A stretch of DNA of 64,000 nt from Oculina patagonica (taxonomy: Eukaryota), in assembly GCF_052425735.1 (NCBI RefSeq), contig NW_027558036.1:1736001-1800000 (forward strand), written 5' to 3'. Both the position numbers and the translations under genes were made by a program. Positions 3,001-57,498 of the stretch are shown one piece after another. Numbering within the stretch: position 1 is the stretch's first letter; the number at the start of each line of letters is the position of its first letter. The notes under the pieces are model-generated. The model did no database searches, was not told the origin of the DNA, and saw nothing but the letters and a program-made list of their open reading frames with translations.

Positions 3001-4584
3001 ACATGGAACATATTATTCCGATAGTAAAATGTTTATCGTTTCAAGTTCAAAGCGTGTGCTAGCTTTCTAAGGGAAACTGATCGAAATGTTATGTTCAAAG
3101 CGTGTGTATGTTCGCTTGTCTGAAGGAAACTTGTTGTATGAATTGAATGAATTTTACGCCATATGTTATAACGACAAGAAAAAACAAACAAACAAACAAA
3201 CAAAAAACAGCCCAAAAGTAATTATTTTAAACTCTCTCGTGCAATATTTCAAAACTTAACTAGAGAGATCAACGTTAATGATATACCCTTTATGAATGGT
3301 TAACGCAGTAAGGTACACACCAATCAATATTTTATAACGAGCGTGCTTTTCGTCGTAAGACATAATTTAGAAAAAGTTTTGAATTTTTAAGAGCATTATA
3401 TAAATCGTTTTCACTGTCACGCAAATGCAAATCGAAAAACCAATCAGTGAATGAAGTCAAGAAAACGGGATATTATAGGGGATTAATAAAGAAAACATTA
3501 TTCCAAATATTAGGTCCGTGCGTTATCCCACACTTCAGTTAATCGTCGAAATGTTTTGCACAAATTTACAGAGCCCAGTATGGAGCTGCCATATCCGAAA
3601 ATAGCGTGAACATCTGGAACTTACATTGGCTTATTTAGGCCACTGATTATCTGTAATGGACAAACAAACATTAACATGGTCATCTTCTCTAATGTCTTAA
3701 CACCACAAGATAAACATATATTTTATGACAAACATGATTGTGATCTTATGTCGCGCACCGCCATAATTCTGAAATTGAAAATGCGCCGGTTTTCGAACGA
3801 AGGCCGCTATTGAGCTGAAAAGTTTCAAACAGACATCATTTTAATACCTCTTATGCCTGATGTGGATAAACACGTTAGGGACTCTTTAGTTTTGTATATT
3901 AGTACTATTAGTACGGAAAAACGATCTATTGAATCAATTTCACGCCCTATGTTATGAACGACAATTCAGTCCAAAAGTAATCATTTTTAACTTTACCATG
4001 CAATATTTCAGAATTGGCTAGATAGATAAACGTTTTTTTTTTCTGAGAAAAGCATCTGCTGGCTGATGTGACTCTAATCTTTCATTGTTGTTTTAGCCAA
4101 CAAAACGCCATAAACCAGACATGAACGAGAGTCTGAATGGGATTTAGTGTTTAGTGTTATTTGCCCATAATTTTTAGTGTTTGATGTTAAATTGGCCAAT
4201 TTTTTAATGCTTACTGTTTCCGGAGAAAATGCCGTTAAGTGTTTAGAGGATATTTCGTAAAAAATCCATAGTCTTTACACTGTAAACATATATCTTTCGC
4301 ATGTAAATATATAACGACGAAAATATGGGGGAAAATTTTCGGATTTCTCCTCAGAAATATTCGGTAGTCTTCGGACATCTTTTGTAGTCTTCGGAAATAT
4401 TCGGTATTCTTCTGGAATCTTTGGTAGTCTTCGGAAATCTTCCGAAATGATCGGGAATCGTCAGAAAATAACCGAATACTTCTTGATATACCAAAAAAAA
4501 TAATAGTGGCCTTTTTGGAGCCGTTTTTGTTTTATTTCTGGATAAAATTCACTGCCAGTGTTACCGTGAATTTTTTATTGTTAG

Positions 4585-7404: not shown

Positions 7405-8312
7405 GTCTTAAAATACCAAAAATTTAACTATGTCATGTTACAGAGCCAAAAACGTAAGTGCTAAGTGTTATCGAGGTACACCCATCCAGACCCTCATGAA
7501 CGTCGAAGGCATTAGCTGATAATTTGAATTCATTACTATGATAAACAAAACAAAAACTGTTATCGTCCACAAAATGTAAAAGGAAGAACAGCTGCTAGAC
7601 GTTGCACTTTCTCGGTGTAGAATACTTCGTATTTCCGCTGGAAGATACGACCCAACAATAAAAGAAAAAGTTTGCCACCTTTCAGGTAATTTAAACTATA
7701 GAATTTGAAACTGTTTTTCAAGTATAAATCTAACTGTTTCACGCTACGGTGCCAAAAAGGTAAGTGTTAACTGTTATAGAGGTACCCCCATTTAGCCCCT
7801 TATAAACGTCCAAGGCATTAGCTGACAATTTGAATTCATAATTATGTGAAACAAAACATAAACTGTTAACATCCACAAAATTTAGAATGAAGAGCAGCTG
7901 CTACACGTTACACTGTCTCGGTGTAGAATATTTCGTCTTTCCACTGGAAGATACGGCCCAACACTACGAGAAAACGGTTGCCACCTTGCAGGTAATTTAA
8001 ACTATAGAATTTGAAACTGTTTTTCAAGTATAAATCTAACTGTCTAATAAGATAACTGTTTCACGCTACGGTGCCAAAAAGGTAAGTGTTAAGTGTTATA
8101 GAGGTACCCCATTTAGCCCCTTATAAACGTTCAAGGCATTAGCTGACAATTTGAATTCATAATTATGTAAAACAAAGCATAAACTGTTAACATCCACAAA
8201 ATTTAGATTGAAGAGCAGCTGCTAGGCGTTACACTTTCTCGGTGTAGAATATTTCGTCTTTCCACTGGAAGATACGACCCAACACTACAAGAAAAAGGTT
8301 GCCACCTTTCAG
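7405..8312 (+). repeat. Three ~300-bp tandem sub-repeats inside subunit B
   Basis: GCCAAAAA(G/C)GTAAGTG ... CTCGGTGTAGAATA ... GCCACCTTTCAGGTAATT occurs three times in succession. Confidence 0.85.
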
Positions 8313-42900: not shown

Positions 42901-45900
42901 AAATTTGGCTTAAATTCATGACAAGTTCCTTAAGTTTAAGAAAAGCCGTCAACTCATACAGAAGGTAGGCCGCTTTTGTACGCGCGCTGTCTTATACTCT
43001 CTTGGTTCTTGGCATTAAAAAAATCTTCCGGCAGGAAGATTTTTCAAGGAATTAAATTTGGAGCTAATCCTTGTTGTTTTTGTCTTATGAAATTAATATT
43101 AGGCGTCTTTTCCAGAAAACATGTCAGAGTTTGTTATTTGGGCGATCAGTGTTTATCAAGTTAGCTAAAAAACTTTTTAAAACTGATCTAAAAATGTAAA
43201 AATGATCTTATAAACACTTTTCAGAAACTAAATATTTGGCAAACGTTCTGTTGCCTTCGTCAGACGTAGTTTGAAACAGTTTCACTGCATGTACAATCGG
43301 GTCTTATTAGTCTCCAAAGATGCAGACAAAGGTAACTAAACTTGTGGGAAATGTAAATGTTTAGGAGCGAAAGAATAAAGTAAGCACTTGCAAACCTGCG
43401 GCACAAAATAGAATTATGCAAAATAGAATCATTCTGTAAATGTTCGTTTATGCAAAACGTCCAGAAAAAGGCGTTCTAGTCTGTTCAGGTTTCTTTCTAG
43501 AATGTCAACGTAGTCTTGGTCAATGTCGAAATCTGTTGCTCCCTCAGAGATTGGCCAAAAGTGATGTCAAGAAAAAGAAAACTAAAGAATAAAAAAATGA
43601 AAATTTATAGACATAGCACGCCAATAGCACAGAGCTTAACATTGGCGACATTGTACGTTACTTGCTTATTTTCGTCATTCTGAAAAATGAATTTTTAATA
43701 TCCATGTTCCGTTATTTATTTTTATTTTTTTACCCGTGAACCGTGCCAGAGACCGCCCTTGTAAGACTCGCTACGAAGCAGCACAAGAGAAAAAAGCAGA
43801 AAGCACAAATATACGAATCATCTTCGACGCATCAGCTAAGGAATATCAAACTAGTTCCTCCTTAAACGATTGTAGATTGGAGACTGAGCCTCCACTCTAA
43901 AACATACTCTGGATTGTGCTGGTTCAAAACCGTTTCAAAGCTAGCTGTTGCGCTTTGTGGCGATTTTTAGCAGTTAGTCTTGCAGGTACACACATGTTTT
44001 AGGCTTTGATATTTACTTGTCCGTTGTTAGGTTTAACACAGCCACTGTTTCTTCTTGGTGGAACTCTAAAGCAACGGCTAGAAAACTTGAAAGCCAAATA
44101 TCACGAAGATTTTGAGGATCGTTAGTGGAAGAATTACCACTGCCCAGGGCGCAATTTATAATTTGAAAAGGTTACAGTCTTAGAATATTGAGAAGCGGAG
44201 TTTAAACTACATACATGCCACTCTTATGTGGTGGTGGCTAACGCTCAATTGAGAGACGAAGGGAAAATATATGACAAGGAAAATTTGTGCGTGAAAGCCA
44301 AAAAAGCAAAGTTACCGAGACTATTTTTGGAGCAAGCAGAAAGATACCATGGTCGTGATCTTTACTAAAGGCTCTGTGGAAACTAGTTAGAGAGAAACTC
44401 TGAGTAGTTAGGCATAAGTAATTGACCCTCTTGGAGTGGCAAGCTTTCTAGCCCACAGCCTGAGTAATGAGGCTGTAGGGCTTTTGCTTCTTTGAAGTGG
44501 CAAGTCCAACAGCTTGGGTAAGACGATCTATACTACAAATCGACTCGCAGAGAGGGGGGGAATAGAGAAACTGGTAAAACAGTGTTGCAAGTTCAAGGAA
44601 TACCTAATTTATAAAGTAAGAATTTCCTGCAGGCTAGCTACAGCCAAAGGCAGTCCATTTTTTGTTTACATGTCTTCGGTGATACTGTTGGCACAGTAAC
44701 TGCGACGGCAGTGTACGGATTATTCTTTAAGAGTCGGGCGCAAACCAAGATCTTTAACCCGAGCCATTCACCTCGAACTGGTACCAAATTTAACGGATAA
44801 GCAGTTCATCAGTATCCGCACATTTTGCATCGCAAAGGAGCAAAGTCCAATATGATCAACGCTTATAACGGTAGAAATTTTACAGGTACAGCAAACAGGT
44901 CGAGTAAGGTGGTGATCCCAACTTCACTTTGACAGTTTTTTGCCAAAACACGCAATCAGTTACTATACAAGGAAATGTTCATATATATCAGATTTTTGAC
45001 AGTTCGAACCATATTTCAGCTTCGATGCAGTTAATATACAACAGACTTAACAGCACGATTCACTTTAACCCTAAACAATACAAAGAAGTTCAAAGATAGC
45101 CTAAGGAGTCCTTTCATCACTCGTGTTCCTGACGCAAGAGGGACTGGGTACACAGGCATCTCAGCGAAAATAACTACACTTACTCTTGGTGATGTGGGTG
45201 GGGATTACTATACAGGAGGCTATTACGAAAAGGGGATGCCTTTGTCAGACTGGAGGTATATCACCCTGTATGTCTGCTTGCCTGTCTTTTTTTCTGTCCA
45301 ACTCCCTGGCTGCTGCATGCCTGCCTGCCTGTCTGTCTGTCTGTCTAGTCTGTCTGACTGTCTGTCTGCCTGTTTGTCCGACTGTCTGTGTGTGTGTGTC
45401 TGTCAGTCAAAATGTTGCTGAATTACAGAAAACTTCTTAAAAGTGGCTCATAACAAATAATTTAAGTTTTAACTGTCGTGGGCCACATAATAATTACAAT
45501 TGGTGACAATAATTATTATTGGTGGCTTGATGCAAATAGGACAATATATCACTGTATATAATTTGCTTATCCAGCTTTCGCTCGATTACTGATTACGGAT
45601 TAATTTAAGGGCAAACGGCCGTAAAGTTTTGAAAGTAACAACCATTGTTACTGTCACATTTAACAGTGTTTTCCTTTCATTACTTCTGGTGGGTAGCTTC
45701 GTTCGAGGGGTCGATACTTTTAATCATCTTAAAGGTGTGGCATATAAGGGTCGATCTGTCTTACTGTAATCGTACAATATGTGATTTTGTTTTTCGCAGG
45801 TACCTTAGCCACAATAAAATAGAAGTGCTGCCTGAAGGAATATTTGAGAACCTATCAAGTCTAGTTGTTTTGTAAGTACATGCATCTGACAAGTATTTAA

Positions 45901-48900
45901 TTAAGGAGGCTATTAACGGTTTCCAGCACTTTCCATCTCTTATACTTTGATGGATCAGTACTGCAAACCTTTTACAGTTGCTCCTACAATAATGGTACCA
46001 AACAAATGCCCAATCATTGGTAACAACAGTTTAACCTGTTTAGAACTGCTACAAACTGGATAATGATCAAAATATTAAAATACAACTTTTTGCAAAACTA
46101 AAAGGGCAGACTATAAATGAATTTTAAAATCAAATACAAATGTAAATAGCCTAATTAATTGTAAATATTTTTAACTTTTAATACTTTTAATTTACAAGAC
46201 CCCACAAGCTGTAAGCTTTTATCCAAATCGTGTTTTTAAATAAAGGCAAATTACTTACTTACTTACTTATTGAGCTTGAACTCTAATGTTTATGCCGAAT
46301 ATAAAACCGACTGACTTTTTGACTTTGAACGTACCAATTCTCGTTCCATAAACTAAACTGATTAACTGAAGGTTTATGCTTCGTTTACTGGTATTTTACG
46401 TTGTTCTTGTTAACCCGTCTTGTCTGTTTCTCTGGCTGGCCGAATTTTTTTTAAATTACAAAATGGTAAAAATTGTTATAATGAGAATATTTAAAACTAG
46501 CTCATATCAAATAAATTAGTTTTAATCGCCTCAAAAACTAAATTTGAAAGTACTGCTTCTGATTATAACGTTGCCAACTTTGGCTATTCTCGTGACTTTA
46601 AGTTAGGCGTTACGAACATGTCTCTGCTTCCCAATCTCTCGGTATTTGCATGGATGATAAAAGACTGTCGAGGAATACCCTAAATTTGGCGAAAAAGGGT
46701 CATTTGGAGTGGGTGGCAGTGGGAGGCTGTAGTAGTGTATTACATGTAGCCCAGCGGTTACTCATAAGAGTACATCCGGGATGCGAAGAGTGTGTAGTGA
46801 GCGGGAAAGCATGTACTGTGTGTACGGGCGTGTGTTCTGCTTTAAAAGCAGCTGTAAGCCTTTGTGGCCTTTGAACACTAAAAATTGGCGACGAGGATGT
46901 CGCACTCAGTGGAACGAGCGTTGTCGCCCTAAGATTTAACCGGTTCTTCCTTTCAGGTCGCCAAACGGTGGCGACAGTGGAAGCGATTTTACCAATATTA
47001 CATCGATGGCAAAGGAATTACGAACGCCTCTCGAAAGAAAGCTCAATTACTTCATTTAGCGGGCATGGAAGTCCAAGATATTTTCGAAGTCGTTCCGGAT
47101 TCAGGACCGATCAATGCCGAGGAGGGTAACGAGTATGTAGTGTGTCTTCGTACGCTTGATGGAGGGACTGGATGGGGGGGTACAAATGTCAGTTGTCAGT
47201 TAAATTTTAGGCGATTTGTCAGTTGTCAGTTAAATTTTAGGCCATTTGTCAGTTGTCTGTTACTTGACTGTTAATAATTAACCGTGTAACTAAATTATTT
47301 ACTTCTGACCCAAAAGCTAGCTCGATTGGCACATATAACGTAAAGTATATCGTTAATTCAAGATTCTTACTTAAAGAACTATTGTTTCTCAGATTTGGAG
47401 TTAAAACCATTGCAATTGCATTACAACCTGAGATAAAAATTTAAGCGTTAACTTGCCTACCGATGATCACCTATATCAGTCTAAATCTACCTATTTATCT
47501 TCAACACTTTATACTTAATAGACCTTAATAAATATCAAGAAGAGTTTACGGAGCAAAATAAAATATCTTGAGAATTTGAGTAAAACCGCGAGTATCGTAT
47601 TTTCTCGATTGAAAAAGCTGGCTTCTAATAAAGCCGAGTTTCCACGGTGGAAGTATGAAAACCTGTACTGGTCTGTAATAAAAAATTTGCATTATACTCA
47701 AAAGTAATGTATAAAGGTCTCCGCACACGTGGGGTCAAGACGCAGGGACATGTTGCAGCAATATGAAGCAGCGACAAAATCATGTGTTGTTCACACTGAG
47801 GGGACATGCAGCAGGGACGATGATATTTGAGTCAGCATGAAAAAGTGTCGAAAATCCAAGGAATTGACCCTGAGAGTTATGATAATCATTAGTGAATTGG
47901 TATTTCTAATGGATTGGTATTACATTTGCAGTGCGAAGTGTTTTCAGTAACATTTTGTTTTTAGCTGTGAATTACCGCTATTTTTAGCCACTGTTTTAAC
48001 CCTTGAATTACATAATGGTCAACTGATACGACTGAAATGTGACATGTACATGCATTATAACCAGATTTCTACCTGAAACAAACGCGCTCGGTGGTTCACA
48101 TTGCCGCAACGTTTCAAAATTTAGTTTTATATACACAGTGCCACAGTAATTATAACATATATAACGCCAAGAGAAATAATTAAGTATCAAACACATCGTA
48201 CATTGCAACAAAAATGGGAACAAGAAACACGTAGTCGTACCTGGTAGGATTTCTGGACTAACTGGCATAATTCATATTTATATCAATACAAAATACAAAT
48301 GCACTTATAATACATACTGTTCATTTCGCTTCCTGTGCCATCCAGTAAGCTTGGTAGTTCGAGCTTCCACTGGCCGTCTGTGGTGATGACGAAGTTGTCG
48401 CTTTTCCCACTCTCATTCGGTGCCATTCGGAAAAGCTTGATGTCAAAGTCACCAAGGCCGCATTTTCTAGTTAAATCTTTGAGGCCAAGGAATGCCACAA
48501 GGTGCTTTTTGAGCGCATGAACTGTATTTATATCATTTATCGGAATACGGCTTCTAAATCGATCGAAAGCCGAGTTCGAGTCAACTCTGTAAAAGCTTAC
48601 AATAGCTTTTACAACGCCAGCATTGGCGGCCATTGCATAAACTGGCGCGTGTTCAGCGTAACTTTGAGATCGTAGCTGGTAATATGACCCTGATGTACAA
48701 GGGTCATACAGTGAATCATTAACGAAATATGAAACCCTAGCGTCCCGCTGCTGAGATTCGTATAAAACGTACATTTGTTTGACGAAAAGAGTCAAAGAGT
48801 GTTATTTACAACGGGTTTTTTAGGATTAACGATGCTCATGTGGGTTATTTAGGACAGTTTGGTCAGTTGTCAGTTGTCAGTAAAAGCCACTACAAATGTC

Positions 48901-51900
48901 AGTTGTCAGTTAGATTTTAGGCGATTTGTCAGTTGTCAGTTAAAATTTTGGCCATTTGTCAGTTGTCAGTTAACCCCATCCAGACCCTCTTGATGCTCAT
49001 TTTCGCGCCGTGGACGAAGTCCATGTTTTTTCCACAGCCGCCCAGACGTTGTATTCGATTTAGGTGATTATAAGACAATGTATGAGAATACTTTGAAAAT
49101 TGCTCGAAATTGTACTTGTATGAAAGATTTGAATAAAAATTTCTTACCTTATGTTTATCATGCGTTATTTTGACATTTCTGTGCCTCTGGAGTGGGTTTA
49201 AAGCCGTTTAGACGAGTTTTTCTTTCCGACGTTGTCGCCATGGCGCGGTCGCTTAGCTAAATTTTTGAATCTTGTGCCCGAGATAACTTTTCACGCATTC
49301 AGACAAAGCAAAAGTGGAAACCCAGCGCTCGAACACGAGCGTTTCTCGGGCGGTTAAAATAAACTTTGGAACCTTAAGCGAAGGAAATCGAAAGAAGAAT
49401 TATCGACGGCTGTATTGAAGCAATTTTGGTGAGATTCGACACTTTTTGTGGTATTTAAGGAGCTTCGAGTGCGAACCGTTGGCGAACTAGCTATAGGTCA
49501 CCTGCCTTTCGTTTCTCTTTAGGGGAAGCAACGTCGGAAAGAAAAAACTTCTTTTAAGCATGGACACTGTTAAGGGGTAGCTTCGTTCGAGGGGTCGATA
49601 CTTTTAATCATCTTAAAGGTGTGGCATATAAGGGTCGATATGTCTTACTGTAATCGTACAATATGTGATTTTGTTTTTCGCAGGTACCTTAGCCACAATA
49701 AAATAGAAGTGCTGCCTGAAGGAATATTTGAGAACCTATCAAGTCTAGTTGGGTTGTAAGTACATGCATTTGACAAGTATTTAATTAAGGAGGCTATTAA
49801 CGGTTTCCAGCACTTTCCATCTCTTATACTTTGATGGATCAGTACTGCAAACCTTTTACAGTTGCTCCTACAATAATGGTACCAAACAAATGCCCAATCA
49901 TTGGTAACAACAGTTTAACCTGTTTAGAACTGCTACAAACTGGATAATGATCAAAATATTAAAATACAACTTTTTGCAAAACTAAAAGGGCAGACTATAA
50001 ATGAATTTTAAAATCAAATACAAATGTAAATAGCCTAATTAATTGTAAATATTTTTAACTTTTAATACTTTTAATTTACAAGACCCCACAAGCTGTAAGC
50101 TTTTATCCAAATCGTGTTTTTAAATAAAGGCAAATTACTTACTTACTTACTTATTGAGCTTGAACTCTAATGTTTATGCCGAATATAAAACCGACTGACT
50201 TTTTGACTTTGAACGTACCAATTCTCGTTCCATAAACTAAACTGATTAACTGAAGGTTTATGCTTCGTTTACTGGTATTTTACGTTGTTCTTGTTAACCC
50301 GTCTTGTCTGTTTCTCTGGCTGGCCGAATTTTTTTTAAATTACAAAATGGTAAAAATTGTTATAATGAGAATATTTAAAACTAGCTCATATCAAATAAAT
50401 TAGTTTTAATCGCCTCAAAAACTAAATTTGAAAGTACTGCTTCTGATTATAACGTTGCCAACTTTGGCTATTCTCGTGACTTTAAGTTAGGCGTTACGAA
50501 CATGTCTCTGCTTCCCAATCTCTCGGTATTTGCATGGATGATAAAAGACTGTCGAGGAATACCCTAAATTTGGCGAAAAAGGGTCATTTGGAGTGGGTGG
50601 CAGTGGGAGGCTGTAGTAGTGTATTACATGTAGCCCAGCGGTTACTCATAAGAGTACATCCGGGATGCGAAGAGTGTGTAGTGAGCGGGAAAGCATGTAC
50701 TGTGTGTACGGGCGTGTGTTCTGCTTTAAAAGCAGCTGTAAGCCTTTGTGGCCTTTGAACACTAAAAATTGGCGACGAGGATGTCGCACTCAGTGGAACG
50801 AGCGTTGTCGCCCTAAGATTTAACCGGTTCTTCCTTTCAGGTCGCCAAACGGTGGCGACAGTGGAAGCGATTTTACCAATATTACATCGATGGCAAAGGA
50901 ATTACGAACGCCTCTCGAAAGAAAGCTCAATTACTTCATTTAGCGGGCATGGAAGTCCAAGATATTTTCGAAGTCGTTCCGGATTCAGGACCGATCAATG
51001 CCGGGGAGGGTAACGAGTATGTAGTGTGTCTTCGTACGCTTGATGGAGGGACTGGATGGGGGGTACAAATGTCAGTTGTCAGTTAAATTTTAGGCGATTT
51101 GTCAGTTGTCAGTTAAATTTTAGGCCATTTGTCAGTTGTCTGTTACTTGACTGTTAATAATTAACCGTGTAACTAAATTATTTACTTCTGACCCAAAAGC
51201 TAGCTCGATTGGCACATATAACGTAAAGTATATCGTTAATTCAAGATTCTTACTTAAAGAACTATTGTTTCTCAGATTTGGAGTTAAAACCATTGCAATT
51301 GCATTACAACCTGAGATAAAAATTTAAGCGTTAACTTGCCTACCGATGATCACCTATATCAGTCTAAATCTACCTATTTATCTTCAACACTTTATACTTA
51401 ATAGACCTTAATAAATATCAAGAAGAGTTTACGGAGCAAAATAAAATATCTTGAGAATTTGAGTAAAACCGCGAGTATCGTATTTTCTCGATTGAAAAAG
51501 CTGGCTTCTAATAAAGCCGAGTTTCCACGGTGGAAGTATGAAAACCTGTACTGGTCTGTAATAAAAAATTTGCATTATACTCAAAAGTAATGTATAAAGG
51601 TCTCCGCACACGTGGGGTCAAGACGCAGGGACATGTTGCAGCAATATGAAGCAGCGACAAAATCATGTGTTGTTCACACTGAGGGGACATGCAGCAGGGA
51701 CGATGATATTTGAGTCAGCATGAAAAAGTGTCGAAAATCCAAGGAATTGACCCTGAGAGTTATGATAATCATTAGTGAATTGGTATTTCTAATGGATTGG
51801 TATTACATTTGCAGTGCGAAGTGTTTTCAGTAACATTTTGTTTTTAGCTGTGAATTACCGCTATTTTTAGCCACTGTTTTAACCCTTGAATTACATAATG

Positions 51901-53637
51901 GTCAACTGATACGACTGAAATGTGACATGTACATGCATTATAACCAGATTTCTACCTGAAACAAACGCGCTCGGTGGTTCACATTGCCGCAACGTTTCAA
52001 AATTTAGTTTTATATACACAGTGCCACAGTAATTATAACATATATAACGCCAAGAGAAATAATTAAGTATCAAACACATCGTACATTGCAACAAAAATGG
52101 GAACAAGAAACACGTAGTCGTACCTGGTAGGATTTCTGGACTAACTGGCATAATTCATATTTATATCAATACAAAATACAAATGCACTTATAATACATAC
52201 TGTTCATTTCGCTTCCTGTGCCATCCAGTAAGCTTGGTAGTTCGAGCTTCCACTGGCCGTCTGTGGTGATGACGAAGTTGTCGCTTTTCCCACTCTCATT
52301 CGGTGCCATTCGGAAAAGCTTGATGTCAAAGTCACCAAGGCCGCATTTTCTAGTTAAATCTTTGAGGCCAAGGAATGCCACAAGGTGCTTTTTGAGCGCA
52401 TGAACTGTATTTATATCATTTATCGGAATACGGCTTCTAAATCGATCGAAAGCCGAGTTCGAGTCAACTCTGTAAAAGCTTACAATAGCTTTTACAACGC
52501 CAGCATTGGCGGCCATTGCATAAACTGGCGCGTGTTCAGCGTAACTTTGAGATCGTAGCTGGTAATATGACCCTGATGTACAAGGGTCATACAGTGAATC
52601 ATTAACGAAATATGAAACCCTAGCGTCCCGCTGCTGAGATTCGTATAAAACGTACATTTGTTTGACGAAAAGAGTCAAAGAGTGTTATTTACAACGGGTT
52701 TTTTAGGATTAACGATGCTCATGTGGGTTATTTAGGACAGTTTGGTCAGTTGTCAGTTGTCAGTAAAAGCCACTACAAATGTCAGTTGTCAGTTAGATTT
52801 TAGGCGATTTGTCAGTTGTCAGTTAAAATTTTGGCCATTTGTCAGTTGTCAGTTAACCCCATCCAGACCCTCTTGATGCTCATTTTCGCGCCGTGGACGA
52901 AGTCCATGTTTTTTCCACAGCCGCCCAGACGTTGTATTCGATTTAGGTGATTATAAGACAATGTATGAGAATACTTTGAAAATTGCTCGAAATTGTACTT
53001 GTATGAAAGATTTGAATAAAAATTTCTTACCTTATGTTTATCATGCGTTATTTTGACATTTCTGTGCCTCTGGAGTGGGTTTAAAGCCGTTTAGACGAGT
53101 TTTTCTTTCCGACGTTGTCGCCATGGCGCGGTCGCTTAGCTAAATTTTTGAATCTTGTGCCCGAGATAACTTTTCACGCATTCAGACAAAGCAAAAGTGG
53201 AAACCCAGCGCTCGAACACGAGCGTTTCTCGGGCGGTTAAAATAAACTTTGGAACCTTAAGCGAAGGAAATCGAAAGAAGAATTATCGACGGCTGTATTG
53301 AAGCAATTTTGGTGAGATTCGACACTTTTTGTGGTATTTAAGGAGCTTCGAGTGCGAACCGTTGGCGAACTAGCTATAGGTCACCTGCCTTTCGTTTCTC
53401 TTTAGGGGAAGCAACGTCGGAAAGAAAAACTTCTTTTAAGCATGGACACTGTTAAGGGGTAGCTTCGTTCGAGGGGTCGATACTTTTAATCATCTTAAAG
53501 GTGTGGCATATAAGGGTCGATATGTCTTACTGTAATCGTACAATATGTGATTTTGTTTTTCGCAGGTACCTTAGCCACAATAAAATAGAAGTGCTGCCTG
53601 AAGGAATATTTGAGAACCTATCAAGTCTAGTTGGGTT
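30648..53637 (+). CDS. Spliced extracellular LRR protein, 5' part (signal peptide + LRRNT + 8 LRR exons; LRR-GPCR/LGR-like or other LRR receptor); 3' end beyond window
   Basis: Exons 30648-30708, 31897-32026, 32694-32765, 38509-38580, 39018-39089, 39294-39365, 42639-42710, 45800-45871, 49684-49755, 53566-53637 all have AG/GT borders and join in frame (phase 1, then phase 2) into ~255 aa without stops. Receptor class is not determinable here. Confidence 0.9.
31138..31680. repeat. Degenerate (GTGTG)n microsatellite
   Basis: Pentamer GTGTG variants throughout; explains His/Thr- and Val/Trp/Cys-rich ORFs. Confidence 0.9.
31897..32026 (+). CDS. LRR gene exon: Cys-rich N-terminal cap CENVCSGHGRVDEKDQVNNDYTCTNIGSTIDLFKCLPTTATKL
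   Basis: TTTTTCAG acceptor, TT|GTAAGA donor, phase 1 to 2; ends in the LP..T.L motif that precedes LRR1. Confidence 0.85.
32072..32138. repeat. (TCTG/CCTG)n microsatellite; a second tract at ~45315-45405
   Basis: Direct reading. Confidence 0.9.
32694..32765 (+). CDS. LRR exon 1 (SLQRNKISNLPTGAFRHMAALKVL)
   Basis: 72 nt, CAG/GTAAGT, phase 2-2, LxxNxIxxLxxxxFxxLxxL consensus. Confidence 0.92.
35132..35205 (-). mobile_element. tRNA-derived SINE head or tRNA pseudogene
   Basis: Minus strand A box TGGCTCAGTGG and degenerate B box GGATCGACTC at tRNA spacing; stems imperfect. Confidence 0.5.
36652..36872. repeat. Minisatellite TTATTACAATT(T/C)ACGACA, ~20-23-bp unit
   Basis: About ten copies read directly. 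Confidence 0.85.
37355..37893. repeat. ~21-bp tandem repeats (TTGATTTTCTTTTGCCGTGAG) ending in a TACGG-type terminus; possible IS3EU-like non-autonomous remnant
   Basis: Repeats read directly; right end ATGGGCCACCGTA is the reverse complement of TACGGTGGCCCAT; left end not clear. Confidence 0.5.
38509..38580 (+). CDS. LRR exon 2 (DLQLNEISSISLDAFADLKGLHTL)
   Basis: 72 nt, CAG/GTATGT, phase 2-2. Confidence 0.93.
39018..39089 (+). CDS. LRR exon 3 (NLQNNRIQNLTADIFSPLLALQTL)
   Basis: 72 nt, TAG/GTAAGT, phase 2-2. Confidence 0.93.
39294..39365 (+). CDS. LRR exon 4 (NVKDNQIQNLTAEIFSSLMALRVL)
   Basis: 72 nt, TAG/GTAAGT; part of a 276-bp tandem duplicate of exon 3 and its flanks. Confidence 0.9.
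39756..40481. mobile_element. Degraded MITE, Harbinger-like
   Basis: GACCCAGTATAAATGTCGCATTTCACATCTGCCGAAT mirrored imperfectly by ATTCGGCAAACGCGAAATTCGACGTATAAACCGAGCC; TAA flanks. Confidence 0.5.
40499..40697. mobile_element. 199-bp MITE with 9-bp TSD (AcademH-like ends)
   Basis: TIR CCTCGTCCCCAGGCG / CGCCTGGGGACGAGG; TSD GGCGGACTA 40490-40498 and GGCGGTCTA 40698-40706 (one mismatch). Family name is inference. Confidence 0.75.
42639..42710 (+). CDS. LRR exon 5 (DLSSNKIPYLPTGLLTKQTSLAEL)
   Basis: 72 nt, TTTCAG/GTACGT, phase 2-2. Confidence 0.92.
42827..43590 (+). repeat. Intronic segment duplicated (diverged) at ~62735-63560
   Basis: AAAGAACCATACCGCAATCCGTT ... CTGTTGCTCCCTC(A/G)GAGATTGGCCAAAA is colinear in both places. 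Confidence 0.85.
43780..44900 (+). pseudogene. Heavily deleted BEL/Pao LTR-retrotransposon pol remnant
   Basis: Frameshifted fragments ESTNIRIIFDASAK, SLNDC, ETEPPL*NILW, VALCGDF, IDPLGVAS and integrase TRAIHLELVPNL, YNGRNF. Confidence 0.8.
45800..45871 (+). CDS. LRR exon 6a (YLSHNKIEVLPEGIFENLSSLVVL)
   Basis: 72 nt, CGCAG/GTAAGT, phase 2-2. Confidence 0.93.
46728..46899 (+). mobile_element. Gypsy 5' LTR (~155 bp) + primer-binding site; copies at 50612 and 54494
   Basis: Start matches 3' LTR remnant at 62497; PBS TGGCGACGAGGATG (46886-46899) is complementary to the 3' end of eukaryotic tRNA-Ser(GCT). Confidence 0.85.
47162..48989. mobile_element. Unclassified 1828-bp DNA element inserted in Gypsy gag (copy 1)
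   Basis: 16-bp TIR GAGGGACTGGATGGGG / CCCCATCCAGACCCTC; TSD TTGATG 47156-47161 and 48990-48995; removing it restores gag ...LRTLDAHFR. Confidence 0.92.
48318..48633 (-). CDS. Element-borne small protein, first exon (105 aa MAANAG..GSEMN; PB1/beta-grasp-like); copies 52201-52516 and 56084-56399
   Basis: ATG in GCAATGGCC context, globular-protein-like composition, GTATGT donor at 48317. Fold assignment by eye only. Confidence 0.55.
49684..49755 (+). CDS. LRR exon 6b (YLSHNKIEVLPEGIFENLSSLVGL)
   Basis: Copy in second 3.88-kb unit; splice sites intact; GTT>GGG (V>G). Confidence 0.85.
51046..52872. mobile_element. Same 6-bp-TSD element, copy 2
   Basis: Copied with the triplication. Confidence 0.92.
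53566..53637 (+). CDS. LRR exon 6c (identical to 6b)
   Basis: Copy in third 3.88-kb unit; splice sites intact. Confidence 0.85.
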
Positions 53638-54927
53638 GTAAGTACATGCATTTGACAAGTATTTAATTAAGGAGGCTATTAACGGTTTCCAGCACTTTCC
53701 ATCTCTTATACTTTGATGGATCAGTACTGCAAACCTTTTACAGTTGCTCCTACAATAATGGTACCAAACAAATGCCCAATCATTGGTAACAACAGTTTAA
53801 CCTGTTTAGAACTGCTACAAACTGGATAATGATCAAAATATTAAAATACAACTTTTTGCAAAACTAAAAGGGCAGACTATAAATGAATTTTAAAATCAAA
53901 TACAAATGTAAATAGCCTAATTAATTGTAAATATTTTTAACTTTTAATACTTTTAATTTACAAGACCCCACAAGCTGTAAGCTTTTATCCAAATCGTGTT
54001 TTTAAATAAAGGCAAATTACTTACTTACTTACTTATTGAGCTTGAACTCTAATGTTTATGCCGAATATAAAACCGACTGACTTTTTGACTTTGAACGTAC
54101 CAATTCTCGTTCCATAAACTAAACTGATTAACTGAAGGTTTATGCTTCGTTTACTGGTATTTTACGTTGTTCTTGTTAACCCGTCTTGTCTGTTTCTCTG
54201 GCTGGCCGAATTTTTTTTAAATTACAAAATGGTAAAAATTGTTATAATGAGAATATTTAAAACTAGCTCATATCAAATAAATTAGTTTTAATCGCCTCAA
54301 AAACTAAATTTGAAAGTACTGCTTCTGATTATAACGTTGCCAACTTTGGCTATTCTCGTGACTTTAAGTTAGGCGTTACGAACATGTCTCTGCTTCCCAA
54401 TCTCTCGGTATTTGCATGGATGATAAAAGACTGTCGAGGAATACCCTAAATTTGGCGAAAAAGGGTCATTTGGAGTGGGTGGCAGTGGGAGGCTGTAGTA
54501 GTGTATTACATGTAGCCCAGCGGTTACTCATAAGAGTACATCCGGGATGCGAAGAGTGTGTAGTGAGCGGGAAAGCATGTACTGTGTGTACGGGCGTGTG
54601 TTCTGCTTTAAAAGCAGCTGTAAGCCTTTGTGGCCTTTGAACACTAAAAATTGGCGACGAGGATGTCGCACTCAGTGGAACGAGCGTTGTCGCCCTAAGA
54701 TTTAACCGGTTCTTCCTTTCAGGTCGCCAAACGGTGGCGACAGTGGAAGCGATTTTACCAATATTACATCGATGGCAAAGGAATTACGAACGCCTCTCGA
54801 AAGAAAGCTCAATTACTTCATTTAGCGGGCATGGAAGTCCAAGATATTTTCGAAGTCGTTCCGGATTCAGGACCGATCAATGCCGGGGAGGGTAACGAGT
54901 ATGTAGTGTGTCTTCGTACGCTTGATG

Positions 54928-56755
54928 GAGGGACTGGATGGGGGGGTACAAATGTCAGTTGTCAGTTAAATTTTAGGCGATTTGTCAGTTGTCAGTTAAA
55001 TTTTAGGCCATTTGTCAGTTGTCTGTTACTTGACTGTTAATAATTAACCGTGTAACTAAATTATTTACTTCTGACCCAAAAGCTAGCTCGATTGGCACAT
55101 ATAACGTAAAGTATATCGTTAATTCAAGATTCTTACTTAAAGAACTATTGTTTCTCAGATTTGGAGTTAAAACCATTGCAATTGCATTACAACCTGAGAT
55201 AAAAATTTAAGCGTTAACTTGCCTACCAATGATCACCTATATCAGTCTAAATCTACCTATTTATCTTCAACACTTTATACTTAATAGACCTTAATAAATA
55301 TCAAGAAGAGTTTACGGAGCAAAATAAAATATCTTGAGAATTTGAGTAAAACCGCGAGTATCGTATTTTCTCGATTGAAAAAGCTGGCTTCTAATAAAGC
55401 CGAGTTTCCACGGTGGAAGTATGAAAACCTGTACTGGTCTGTAATAAAAAATTTGCATTATACTCAAAAGTAATGTATAAAGGTCTCCGCACACGTGGGG
55501 TCAAGACGCAGGGACATGTTGCAGCAATATGAAGCAGCGACAAAATCATGTGTTGTTCACACTGAGGGGACATGCAGCAGGGACGATGATATTTGAGTCA
55601 GCATGAAAAAGTGTCGAAAATCCAAGGAATTGACCCTGAGAGTTATGATAATCATTAGTGAATTGGTATTTCTAATGGATTGGTATTACATTTGCAGTGC
55701 GAAGTGTTTTCAGTAACATTTTGTTTTTAGCTGTGAATTACCGCTATTTTTAGCCACTGTTTTAACCCTTGAATTACATAATGGTCAACTGATACGACTG
55801 AAATGTGACATGTACATGCATTATAACCAGATTTCTACCTGAAACAAACGCGCTCGGTGGTTCACATTGCCGCAACGTTTCAAAATTTAGTTTTATATAC
55901 ACAGTGCCACAGTAATTATAACATATATAACGCCAAGAGAAATAATTAAGTATCAAACACATCGTACATTGCAACAAAAATGGGAACAAGAAACACGTAG
56001 TCGTACCTGGTAGGATTTCTGGACTAACTGGCATAATTCATATTTATATCAATACAAAATACAAATGCACTTATAATACATACTGTTCATTTCGCTTCCT
56101 GTGCCATCCAGTAAGCTTGGTAGTTCGAGCTTCCACTGGTCGTCTGTGGTGATGGCGAAGTTGTCGCTTTTCCCACTCTCATTCGGTGCCATTCGGAAAA
56201 GCTTGATGTCAAAGTCACCAAGGCCGCATTTTCTAGTTAAATCTTTGAGGCCAAGGAATGCCACAAGGTGCTTTTTGAGCGCATGAACTGTATTTATATC
56301 ATTTATCGGAATACGGCTTCTAAATCGATCGAAAGCCGAGTTCGAGTCAACTCTGTAAAAGCTTACAATAGCTTTTACAACGCCAGCATTGGCGGCCATT
56401 GCATAAACTGGCGCGTGTTCAGCGTAACTTTGAGATCGTAGCTGGTAATATGACCCTGATGTACAAGGGTCATACAGTGAATCATTAACGAAATATGAAA
56501 CCCTAGCGTCCCGCTGCTGAGATTCGTATAAAACGTACATTTGTTTGACGAAAAGAGTCAAAGAGTGTTATTTACAACGGGTTTTTTAGGATTAACGATG
56601 CTCATGTGGGTTATTTAGGACAGTTTGGTCAGTTGTCAGTTGTCAGTAAAAGCCACTACAAATGTCAGTTGTCAGTTAGATTTTAGGCGATTTGTCAGTT
56701 GTCAGTTAAAATTTTGGCCATTTGTCAGTTGTCAGTTAACCCCATCCAGACCCTC
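54928..56755. mobile_element. Same 6-bp-TSD element, copy 3
   Basis: Copied with the triplication. Confidence 0.92.
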
Positions 56756-56797
56756 TTGATGCTCATTTTCGCGCCGTGGACGAAGTCCATGTTTTTT

Positions 56798-57498
56798 CCA
56801 CAGCCGCCCAGACGTTGTATTCGATTTAGGTGATTATAAGACAATGTATGAGAATACTTTGAAAATTGCTCGAAATTGTACTTGTATGAAAGATTTGAAT
56901 AAAAATTTCTTACCTTATGTTTATCATGCGTTATTTTGACATTTCTGTGCCTCTGGAGTGGGTTTAAAGCCGTTTAGACGAGTTTTTCTTTCCGACGTTG
57001 TCGCCATGGCGCGGTCGCTTAGCTAAATTTTTGAATCTTGTGCCCGAGATAACTTTTCACGCATTCAGACAAAGCAAAAGTGGAAACCCAGCGCTCGAAC
57101 ACGAGCGTTTCTCGGGCGGTTAAAATAAACTTTGGAACCTTAAGCGAAGGAAATCGAAAGAAGAATTATCGACGGCTGTATTGAAGCAATTTTGGTGAGA
57201 TTCGACACTTTTTGTGGTATTTAAGGAGCTTCGAGTGCGAACCGTTGGCGAACTAGCTATAGGTCACCTGCCTTTCGTTTCTCTTTAGGGGAAGCAACGT
57301 CGGAAAGAAAAACTTGTCTAAACGGCTTTAAACCCACTCCAGAAGCACAGAAATGTCAAAATAACGCATGATAAACATAAGGTAATACATTTTTATTCAA
57401 ATCTTCAATACAAGTTCTATTTCGAGCAATTTTCAAAGTATTCTCATACATTGTCTTATAATCACCTAAATCGAATACAACGTCTGGGCGACCTGTGG
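56798..57498. mobile_element. 701-bp foldback element with ~200-bp TIRs in gag; truncated copies 49032-49550 and ~52915-53432
   Basis: CCACAGCCGCCCAGACGTTGTATTCG mirrored by CGAATACAACGTCTGGGCGACCTGTGG; sits in a T run and its removal restores gag HVFRQL. Confidence 0.9.

Follow-up and report, generated by a model that had tools for sequence, protein, structure and literature searches.

A deletion-derived transposon with one-way terminal arrays in Oculina patagonica and its predicted P-like transposase

The window analyzed here is a 64,000-nucleotide stretch of Oculina patagonica DNA (contig NW_027558036.1, positions 1,736,001 to 1,800,000). It contains a transposable element with GAGGG..CCCTC ends, inserted within a gag fragment of a long terminal repeat (LTR) retrotransposon (Table 1). 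The element is a 1.8-kb, internally deleted, non-autonomous derivative of an element with a spliced transposase gene. The host gag fragment shares 57% identity with the beginning of a 1348-amino-acid (aa) frame with reverse transcriptase, RNase H and integrase domains.

Table 1. Features of the window element, its host site and two coding relatives. Positions are those of the window unless a locus is named; TSD, target-site duplication; TIR, terminal inverted repeat.
Feature	Position	Strand	Remark
TTGATG TSD, left copy	47156..47161		single in 9/9 empty sites
TTGATG TSD, right copy	48990..48995		adjoins right TIR
TIR, 16 bp, 3' end relative to gene	47162..47177	+	
TIR, 16 bp, 5' end relative to gene	48974..48989	-	
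Array of three 7-bp tandem-pair units, period 30 bp	47187..47261	+	putative transposase-binding array
Array, four units of the same 7-bp pair as the left array	48868..48971	+	same strand as left array
3' terminal segment of autonomous element	47162..47424	-	263 nt; 96% identity with L117:5013-5274
Interior, non-coding and without catalytic exons	47425..48287		no L117 match
Intron 1 start, GT donor at 48317	48288..48317	-	29/30 nt equal the loose end after L117:84 in runs X2, X17, X3
Transposase exon 1, 105 codons	48318..48633	-	96% to L117:1-83; 71 matches in G000
Broken LTR-retrotransposon gag fragment, split by element	46933..47161	+	host
Second element copy	51046..52872	+	same flanks, passive tandem duplication
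Third element copy	54928..56755	+	same flanks, passive tandem duplication
Coding element L078	L078:663-7833		1112 aa, exact 6-bp TSD
Coding element L080	L080:604-6744		1098 aa, exact 6-bp TSD

The element and its autonomous relatives

An earlier note on this DNA had described 16-bp TIRs, an exact TTGATG TSD, 30-bp-phased repeats on the same strand at both ends (three left, four right), and an ~80-bp direct repeat rather than a mirror image. Our analysis bore out each of these. The TIRs are 94% complementary. TGTCAGTTGTCAG occurs exactly at 47187, 47217, 48868, 48897, 48927, and 48957, while the third left unit (47247) differs from it by one change; no reverse-strand TGTCAGTTGTCAG lies within the 64-kb window. 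The direct repeat measures 82 nt (47181-47262 vs 48891-48972) at 95% identity. Three turns of B-DNA span ~31.5 bp, so that the 30-bp period is slightly short of this value, and A/T tracts lie between the units. In element-free paralogous gag fragments, the 6-mer was present once in nine of nine cases (seven TTGATG and two TCGATG). The TSD therefore holds without mending the gag frame.

Two features were absent from the earlier note: a minus-strand exon of the element's own transposase gene, and the presence of the element three times in a 3.9-kb tandem duplication. The latter is a three-fold repeat of a 3883-bp unit at 45691-57315, with 99.8% identity. The gag-plus-element unit also recurs across ~1.5 Mb of C1078 and of C6. 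These same-flank copies are one insertion, passively amplified.

Matches to the minus-strand frame in the 529-Mb genome assembly searched (G000) led to elements that combine related TIRs and exact 6-bp TSDs with long frames. Among metagenome contigs, 71 transposase loci were found. One of these contigs, L117, matches the window element at 96% identity on both sides of an open 1110-aa frame: its first 83 nt match exon 1, and its last 263 nt match the opposite end of the element. As both exon 1 and the last 263 nt match at this level, the window element derives by deletion from the L117 family. Its interior contains short stretches common to other non-autonomous relatives.

Splicing of the gene was indicated by contigs from RNA run X2, which contain two GT..AG joints, and by intron ends at L117:84 and :951. 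L117 itself is without two introns that are present in other contigs; the first begins with the 30 nt that follow the window exon. The exons form a continuous reading frame, in which exon 1 is followed by a charged helix-like stretch, a CxxC..H..C finger, an acidic linker, and the core, with an intron interrupting the zinc finger (CGIC..HFDRC). The L117-type gene was present in 20 runs from 12 studies, most of them metagenomes and metatranscriptomes of corals, and seven of them are possible sources.

Two 16-bp TIR patterns gave 112 and 525 exact matches in G000, and reversed controls gave 0. We took 75 stretches around element ends and 20 around exon matches. TSDs were counted in 38 pairs defined by TIR alone, with flanks unused and nine duplicate loci dropped beforehand. 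An exact 6-bp duplication, for which the chance expectation is ~3e-4, was found in 22 pairs, and at least 5 of 6 positions agreed in 29. Exact duplications of 7, 8, or 9 bp, the lengths of the P superfamily, were found in none of the 38 GAGGG pairs. The fixed 6-bp TSD seen at the window copy thus extends to other copies; some of the misses are wrong pairings. The 22 exact TSDs comprised 21 different sequences, with a weak palindromic target preference (TWWWWA) in the GAGGG family. At L001, L002, and L008, copies 97-99% identical occupy different sites, indicating recent movement.

Seven short copies of 62-140 bp were also recovered. Six of them (68-140 bp) consist of a TIR, forward motifs, and a second TIR, and four of the seven have exact TSDs. 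These tiny copies fit recombination between element ends. Head-to-tail or circle junctions had 0 matches in G000. The C-terminal part of the transposase matched 49 times and the core 28 times, and the excess is made up of deletion derivatives that retain the 3' coding part (e.g. G000:C7:3070894, C4:26458686, and C1:27348021). One 8.6-kb candidate with an exact TSD (L024) was rejected as an autonomous element, as it contains a 6.8-kb LTR retrotransposon, presumably of BEL/Pao type. L024:101-8684 is instead a non-autonomous GAGGG element around that retrotransposon, with an exact outer TSD.

The predicted transposase

Searches with the transposase returned 48 homologues at E 1e-5, from sources named as stony corals, a sea anemone, an octocoral, mussels, and a priapulid, and 869 cluster representatives at E 0.001. 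The proteins share a D-D-DxxH-E core, in which ten cysteines lying between D1 and D2 are invariant. Counting rows with a residue at the position in question (L078 numbering), conservation was 42/42 for D165, 44/44 for D331 and D364, 43/44 for H367, and 36/36 for E898.

The full-length model (pTM 0.80) included a six-bladed NHL-type propeller at ~440-785 (Z 29) with a SAP domain inside it. Both lie between DxxH and the catalytic E, which are 534 residues apart; Pfam recognized SAP in 13 of 49 proteins. Sequence searches of solved structures returned NHL and SAP only. Since fold searches with the full-length model likewise returned only propellers, the core was folded alone (pTM 0.88). The only significant structural match of this modeled core is the Drosophila P transposase. 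Foldseek gave two matches below E 0.001, both P transposase (best 8.7e-8; next 0.13), and the VIA comparison with P transposase gave Z 11.4 and rmsd 4.2 over 233 aligned residues (next Z 7.1). Atlas features agreed with the fold search, scoring the core at 0.92 to PF21787. In the model, the helix-turn-helix, RNase H, and insertion region aligns to residues 164-426 of 6p5a, and the propeller begins at ~440. In P transposases, the insertion is all-helical and binds GTP as a cofactor.

P superfamily proteins carry an N-terminal THAP domain. Pfam sequence scans of exon 1 and of proteins containing the N-terminus gave no THAP match; a different N-terminal finger, CxxC..H..C, is present. No hAT family was found among the 25 Pfam families listed (of 27) for the 49 homologues or among the listed fold matches. 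Viral contigs contained no homologue, and a single-protein query of prokaryote genomes found only one contig (L187), from a bacterial metagenome-assembled genome (MAG). As its transposase is nested among animal sequences in our tree, it is likely host DNA in the MAG bin. The tree comprises 29 rows, was built by a quick method with no outgroup, and has long branches meeting; it is unrooted, and we therefore claim no order of TSD change.

One-way arrays across the lineage

In GAGGG pairs longer than 300 bp, same-strand likeness of the two ends exceeded inverted likeness in 25 of 28. An unbiased search for TIRs and TSDs near transposase frames resolved complete pairs at 12 of 19 loci, with TSDs of 6 bp in nine, 7 bp in one, and 8 bp in two. 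Complete pairs at two of nine additional loci both had 6-bp TSDs, as did three more coding elements with the same end plan. GAG or AGG tips carry 6-bp TSDs, and the TCGGGGG-tipped L103, L104, L108, and L199 have TSDs of 7, 8, 8, and 6 bp. These distant members possibly link P-type and 6-bp spacing. Two of them (L103 and L104) read xENxFS at the catalytic E, close to the P motif.

In 14 of 15 elements, direct end repeats outscored inverted repeats as well as 200 shuffles, and the right ends of all 15 contained zero inverted motif copies. Same-strand arrays are a lineage-wide feature, and the orientation that the earlier note had seen in one element recurs across copies and families. The motif itself changes with the family (ACTGAC, CGTGAA, CGGGAT, CGAAGA, TGAATA, ACCGAC, CCGAGA, CTGGGA, and CCGTAA). 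Single ends at 14 of 50 screened metagenome loci show such arrays as well, including the extra motif TGCGGT. The period was 29-33 bp at 22 of 24 ends. In most GAG families, the left array starts 19-23 bp from the tip and the last right pair lies 36-40 bp from the tip. With these offsets, joined tips would keep the 30-bp register; this counts as a single event in evolution and may be due to chance.

Mechanism, alternatives, and relation to known transposons

The lineage resembles the P superfamily (Drosophila P element, 1360, Galileo, and THAP9) in its RNase H core of D, D, DxxH, and E with an insertion before the E, in its short TIRs combined with internal sites unequally spaced at the two ends, and in its spliced gene, acidic C-terminus, and weak palindromic target preference. 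It differs in several respects. P superfamily termini are CA..TG, which the present elements do not have; tips are GAG, AGG, or TCG here, compared to CATAG in the canonical P of G000. The TSD is mostly 6 bp, with 7-8 bp only in three of four TCGGGGG elements. A cysteine cluster lies between D1 and D2, Pfam scans gave no match to THAP, an NHL propeller and SAP occupy the space between DxxH and E, and the arrays are in direct orientation. TSDs are 8 bp for P, 7 bp for 1360 and Galileo, and 8-9 bp for BuT5 (PMC3698922). Although the lineage would work in the manner of a P element, both TSD and termini depart from those of P elements, so we filed the elements as a P-related lineage and not as a P element. 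The transposon that the earlier note called unclassified is thus not without known kin.

We favor, at a probability of about 75%, the reading that the window element is a deletion copy with both ends and exon 1, mobilized in trans by a predicted transposase with a P-like core through cut-and-paste with a 6-bp duplication, and that its one-way arrays are engaged unequally. The DDE core would make its cuts at the tips, mirrored over 16 bp, and the target would be cut with a stagger of 6 bp. The N-terminal CxxC..H..C zinc finger would read the family-specific 7-bp pairs, as suggested by a motif that follows the element rather than the host; we infer that the arrays bind transposase. At one end the pairs face inward, with their first site ~20 bp from the tip, and at the opposite end they face outward, with the last pair ~38 bp from the tip, so the two ends would be engaged differently. 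A productive complex would pair one left with one right end. Recombination between the direct-repeat ends would, as a by-product, leave the 68-140 bp TIR-array-TIR copies. The unequal end spacing of the P element (9 vs 21 bp; PMC7776569) and the subterminal repeats of Hermes are precedents for unequal end engagement, and the solo repeats of KolobokP (PMC9587614) for the short copies. The earlier note had proposed mobilization in trans by an unidentified autonomous partner. Trans mobilization is supported, whereas the lack of an identified partner is superseded, the predicted partner being a P-element-related DDE transposase.

Several observations weigh against this reading. The cognate L117 gene is absent from G000 (best 60% amino-acid identity; 0 DNA matches), so that the mobilizer of the window copy is deduced from other samples. 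L117 is without its left tip, complete elements were found at 0 of 50 metagenome loci screened (71 in total), and the splice joints were all observed in contigs from a single RNA run. Likeness to canonical P is weak by hhalign (probability 49%, E 1.7e-4), BLASTP against the canonical P transposase of G000 gave no match, and PF21787 exceeds its cut-off in only one of 49 proteins. A 62-bp copy without arrays (L030) has an exact TSD. The element C2a, with an open frame and exact TSD, bears unlike motifs at its two ends. Finally, the spacers of the window family are 95% identical between ends along with the motifs.

A more ambitious version is tentative, and we consider it unlikely as a whole. Here, the elements would form a sister lineage to P at the superfamily level, so far undescribed, with a transposase that assembles into a polar head-to-tail filament and a propeller that replaces much of the GTP-binding domain. 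Through the exon-1 domain, subunits would stack onto one another along the one-way sites. Across the paired tips the array would continue in register, since the last right and first left pairs would stand 58-60 bp (two periods) apart. PB1, TDP-43-N, and CIDE-N folds polymerize head to tail, and the exon-1 domain gave weak leads to all three. Its ubiquitin-like fold lead was also weak (Atlas score 0.82, below its bar), and a three-copy self-association model, with alignment unused, scored 0.00, which weighs neither for nor against.

The last three of the observations listed against the favored reading are those expected if the arrays arose by copying one end onto the other (through conversion or template switching), such that the TIRs alone would be needed and the polarity would serve no function. 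The near-identical spacers in the window family do point to copying between ends. As a general explanation, however, copying appears improbable. Other families share motifs but not spacers between ends (direct scores of 33-76, compared to 144 in the window family), and the 29-33 bp period persists even though the motif differs per family. The offsets from the tips are also conserved, and C2a retains a 30-bp period at both ends despite its unlike motifs.

Still less probable is that the arrays are host-factor sites, or act on transcription or nucleosomes, and are oriented along the gene to serve its expression. The arrays do follow gene direction at both ends, with A/T tracts separating their units. 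However, one array lies behind the 3' end of the gene, and variation of the motif by family within one genome better fits an element-encoded reader.

Membership in a named group with 6-bp TSDs (hAT6 and IS3EU, or Dada at 6-7 bp; PMC12730594, PMC3706591), with the P-like gene not the mobilizer, is largely refuted, as exon 1 and the 3' end of that gene both lie within the window element, the fold search points to P, IS3EU ends are TAYGG, and the Pfam families listed include no hAT. In line with the earlier note, neither IS3EU nor Dada ends fit. IS3EU shares the 6-bp TSD but has TAYGG..CCRTA ends and TIRs longer than 30 bp (PMC12730594), compared to GAGGG..CCCTC and 16 bp here. Dada shares the 6-bp TSD and DxxH but targets small-RNA genes (PMC3706591), whereas our exact TSDs are nearly all different and the window copy lies in gag. 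hAT6 has a 6-bp TSD (PMC12730594), yet the core seen here matches P. In Hermes, a zinc finger reads subterminal repeats at unequal left and right ends, but these repeats are 4 bp, scattered, and partly palindromic rather than phased one-way pairs (PMC10368747). KolobokP is likewise a DxxH DNA transposon of marine invertebrate hosts with direct repeats at both ends and TSD-flanked solo forms. Its repeats, however, are long and composite-like, accompanied by TSDs of 3-5 bp and by a homing endonuclease (PMC9587614), whereas here the direct repeat is an ~80-120 bp array inside single outer TIRs.

Repbase classes non-autonomous elements by termini and TSD (PMC4455052); members of the lineage may therefore already be deposited there as P or unclassified. 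A literature search, which covered neither Repbase and Dfam nor paper supplements (those of PMC12730594 and PMC9587614 may list kin), found no description of the lineage.

The ends of a cut-and-paste transposon are expected to mirror each other. Throughout this lineage, only the outer 16-23 bp do so and the repeat arrays remain one-way; both the geometry of the ends and the set of domains are unusual. Its roughly ten natural motif variants, several next to open transposase frames, open to testing how a transposase distinguishes left from right ends and what can replace the P-type insertion domain. The analysis also supplies a likely mobilizer for hundreds of unassigned GAGGG-ended repeats in G000 and a candidate new tool transposase.

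Other repeats lie nearby. A sister family, whose TIRs are of the same type and whose arrays consist of TTTAGTGTT, has left ends at window positions 4127 and 11427 and right ends at 7495, 20831, and 21073; it is flanked by ATGAAC and was multiplied within duplications of the first 22.7 kb of the window. To the right of the element, a 204-bp segment (49032-49234) with an inverted 95% copy at 57295-57498 is another small repeat.

Canonical P elements of G000 served as a control. Four of 11 loci were resolved, and all four had CATAG ends, a 7-bp TSD, and an inverted score above the direct score. In three canonical P loci (L221, L222, and L223), an internal inverted pair around TCACGTGA lies ~80 bp inside the ends.

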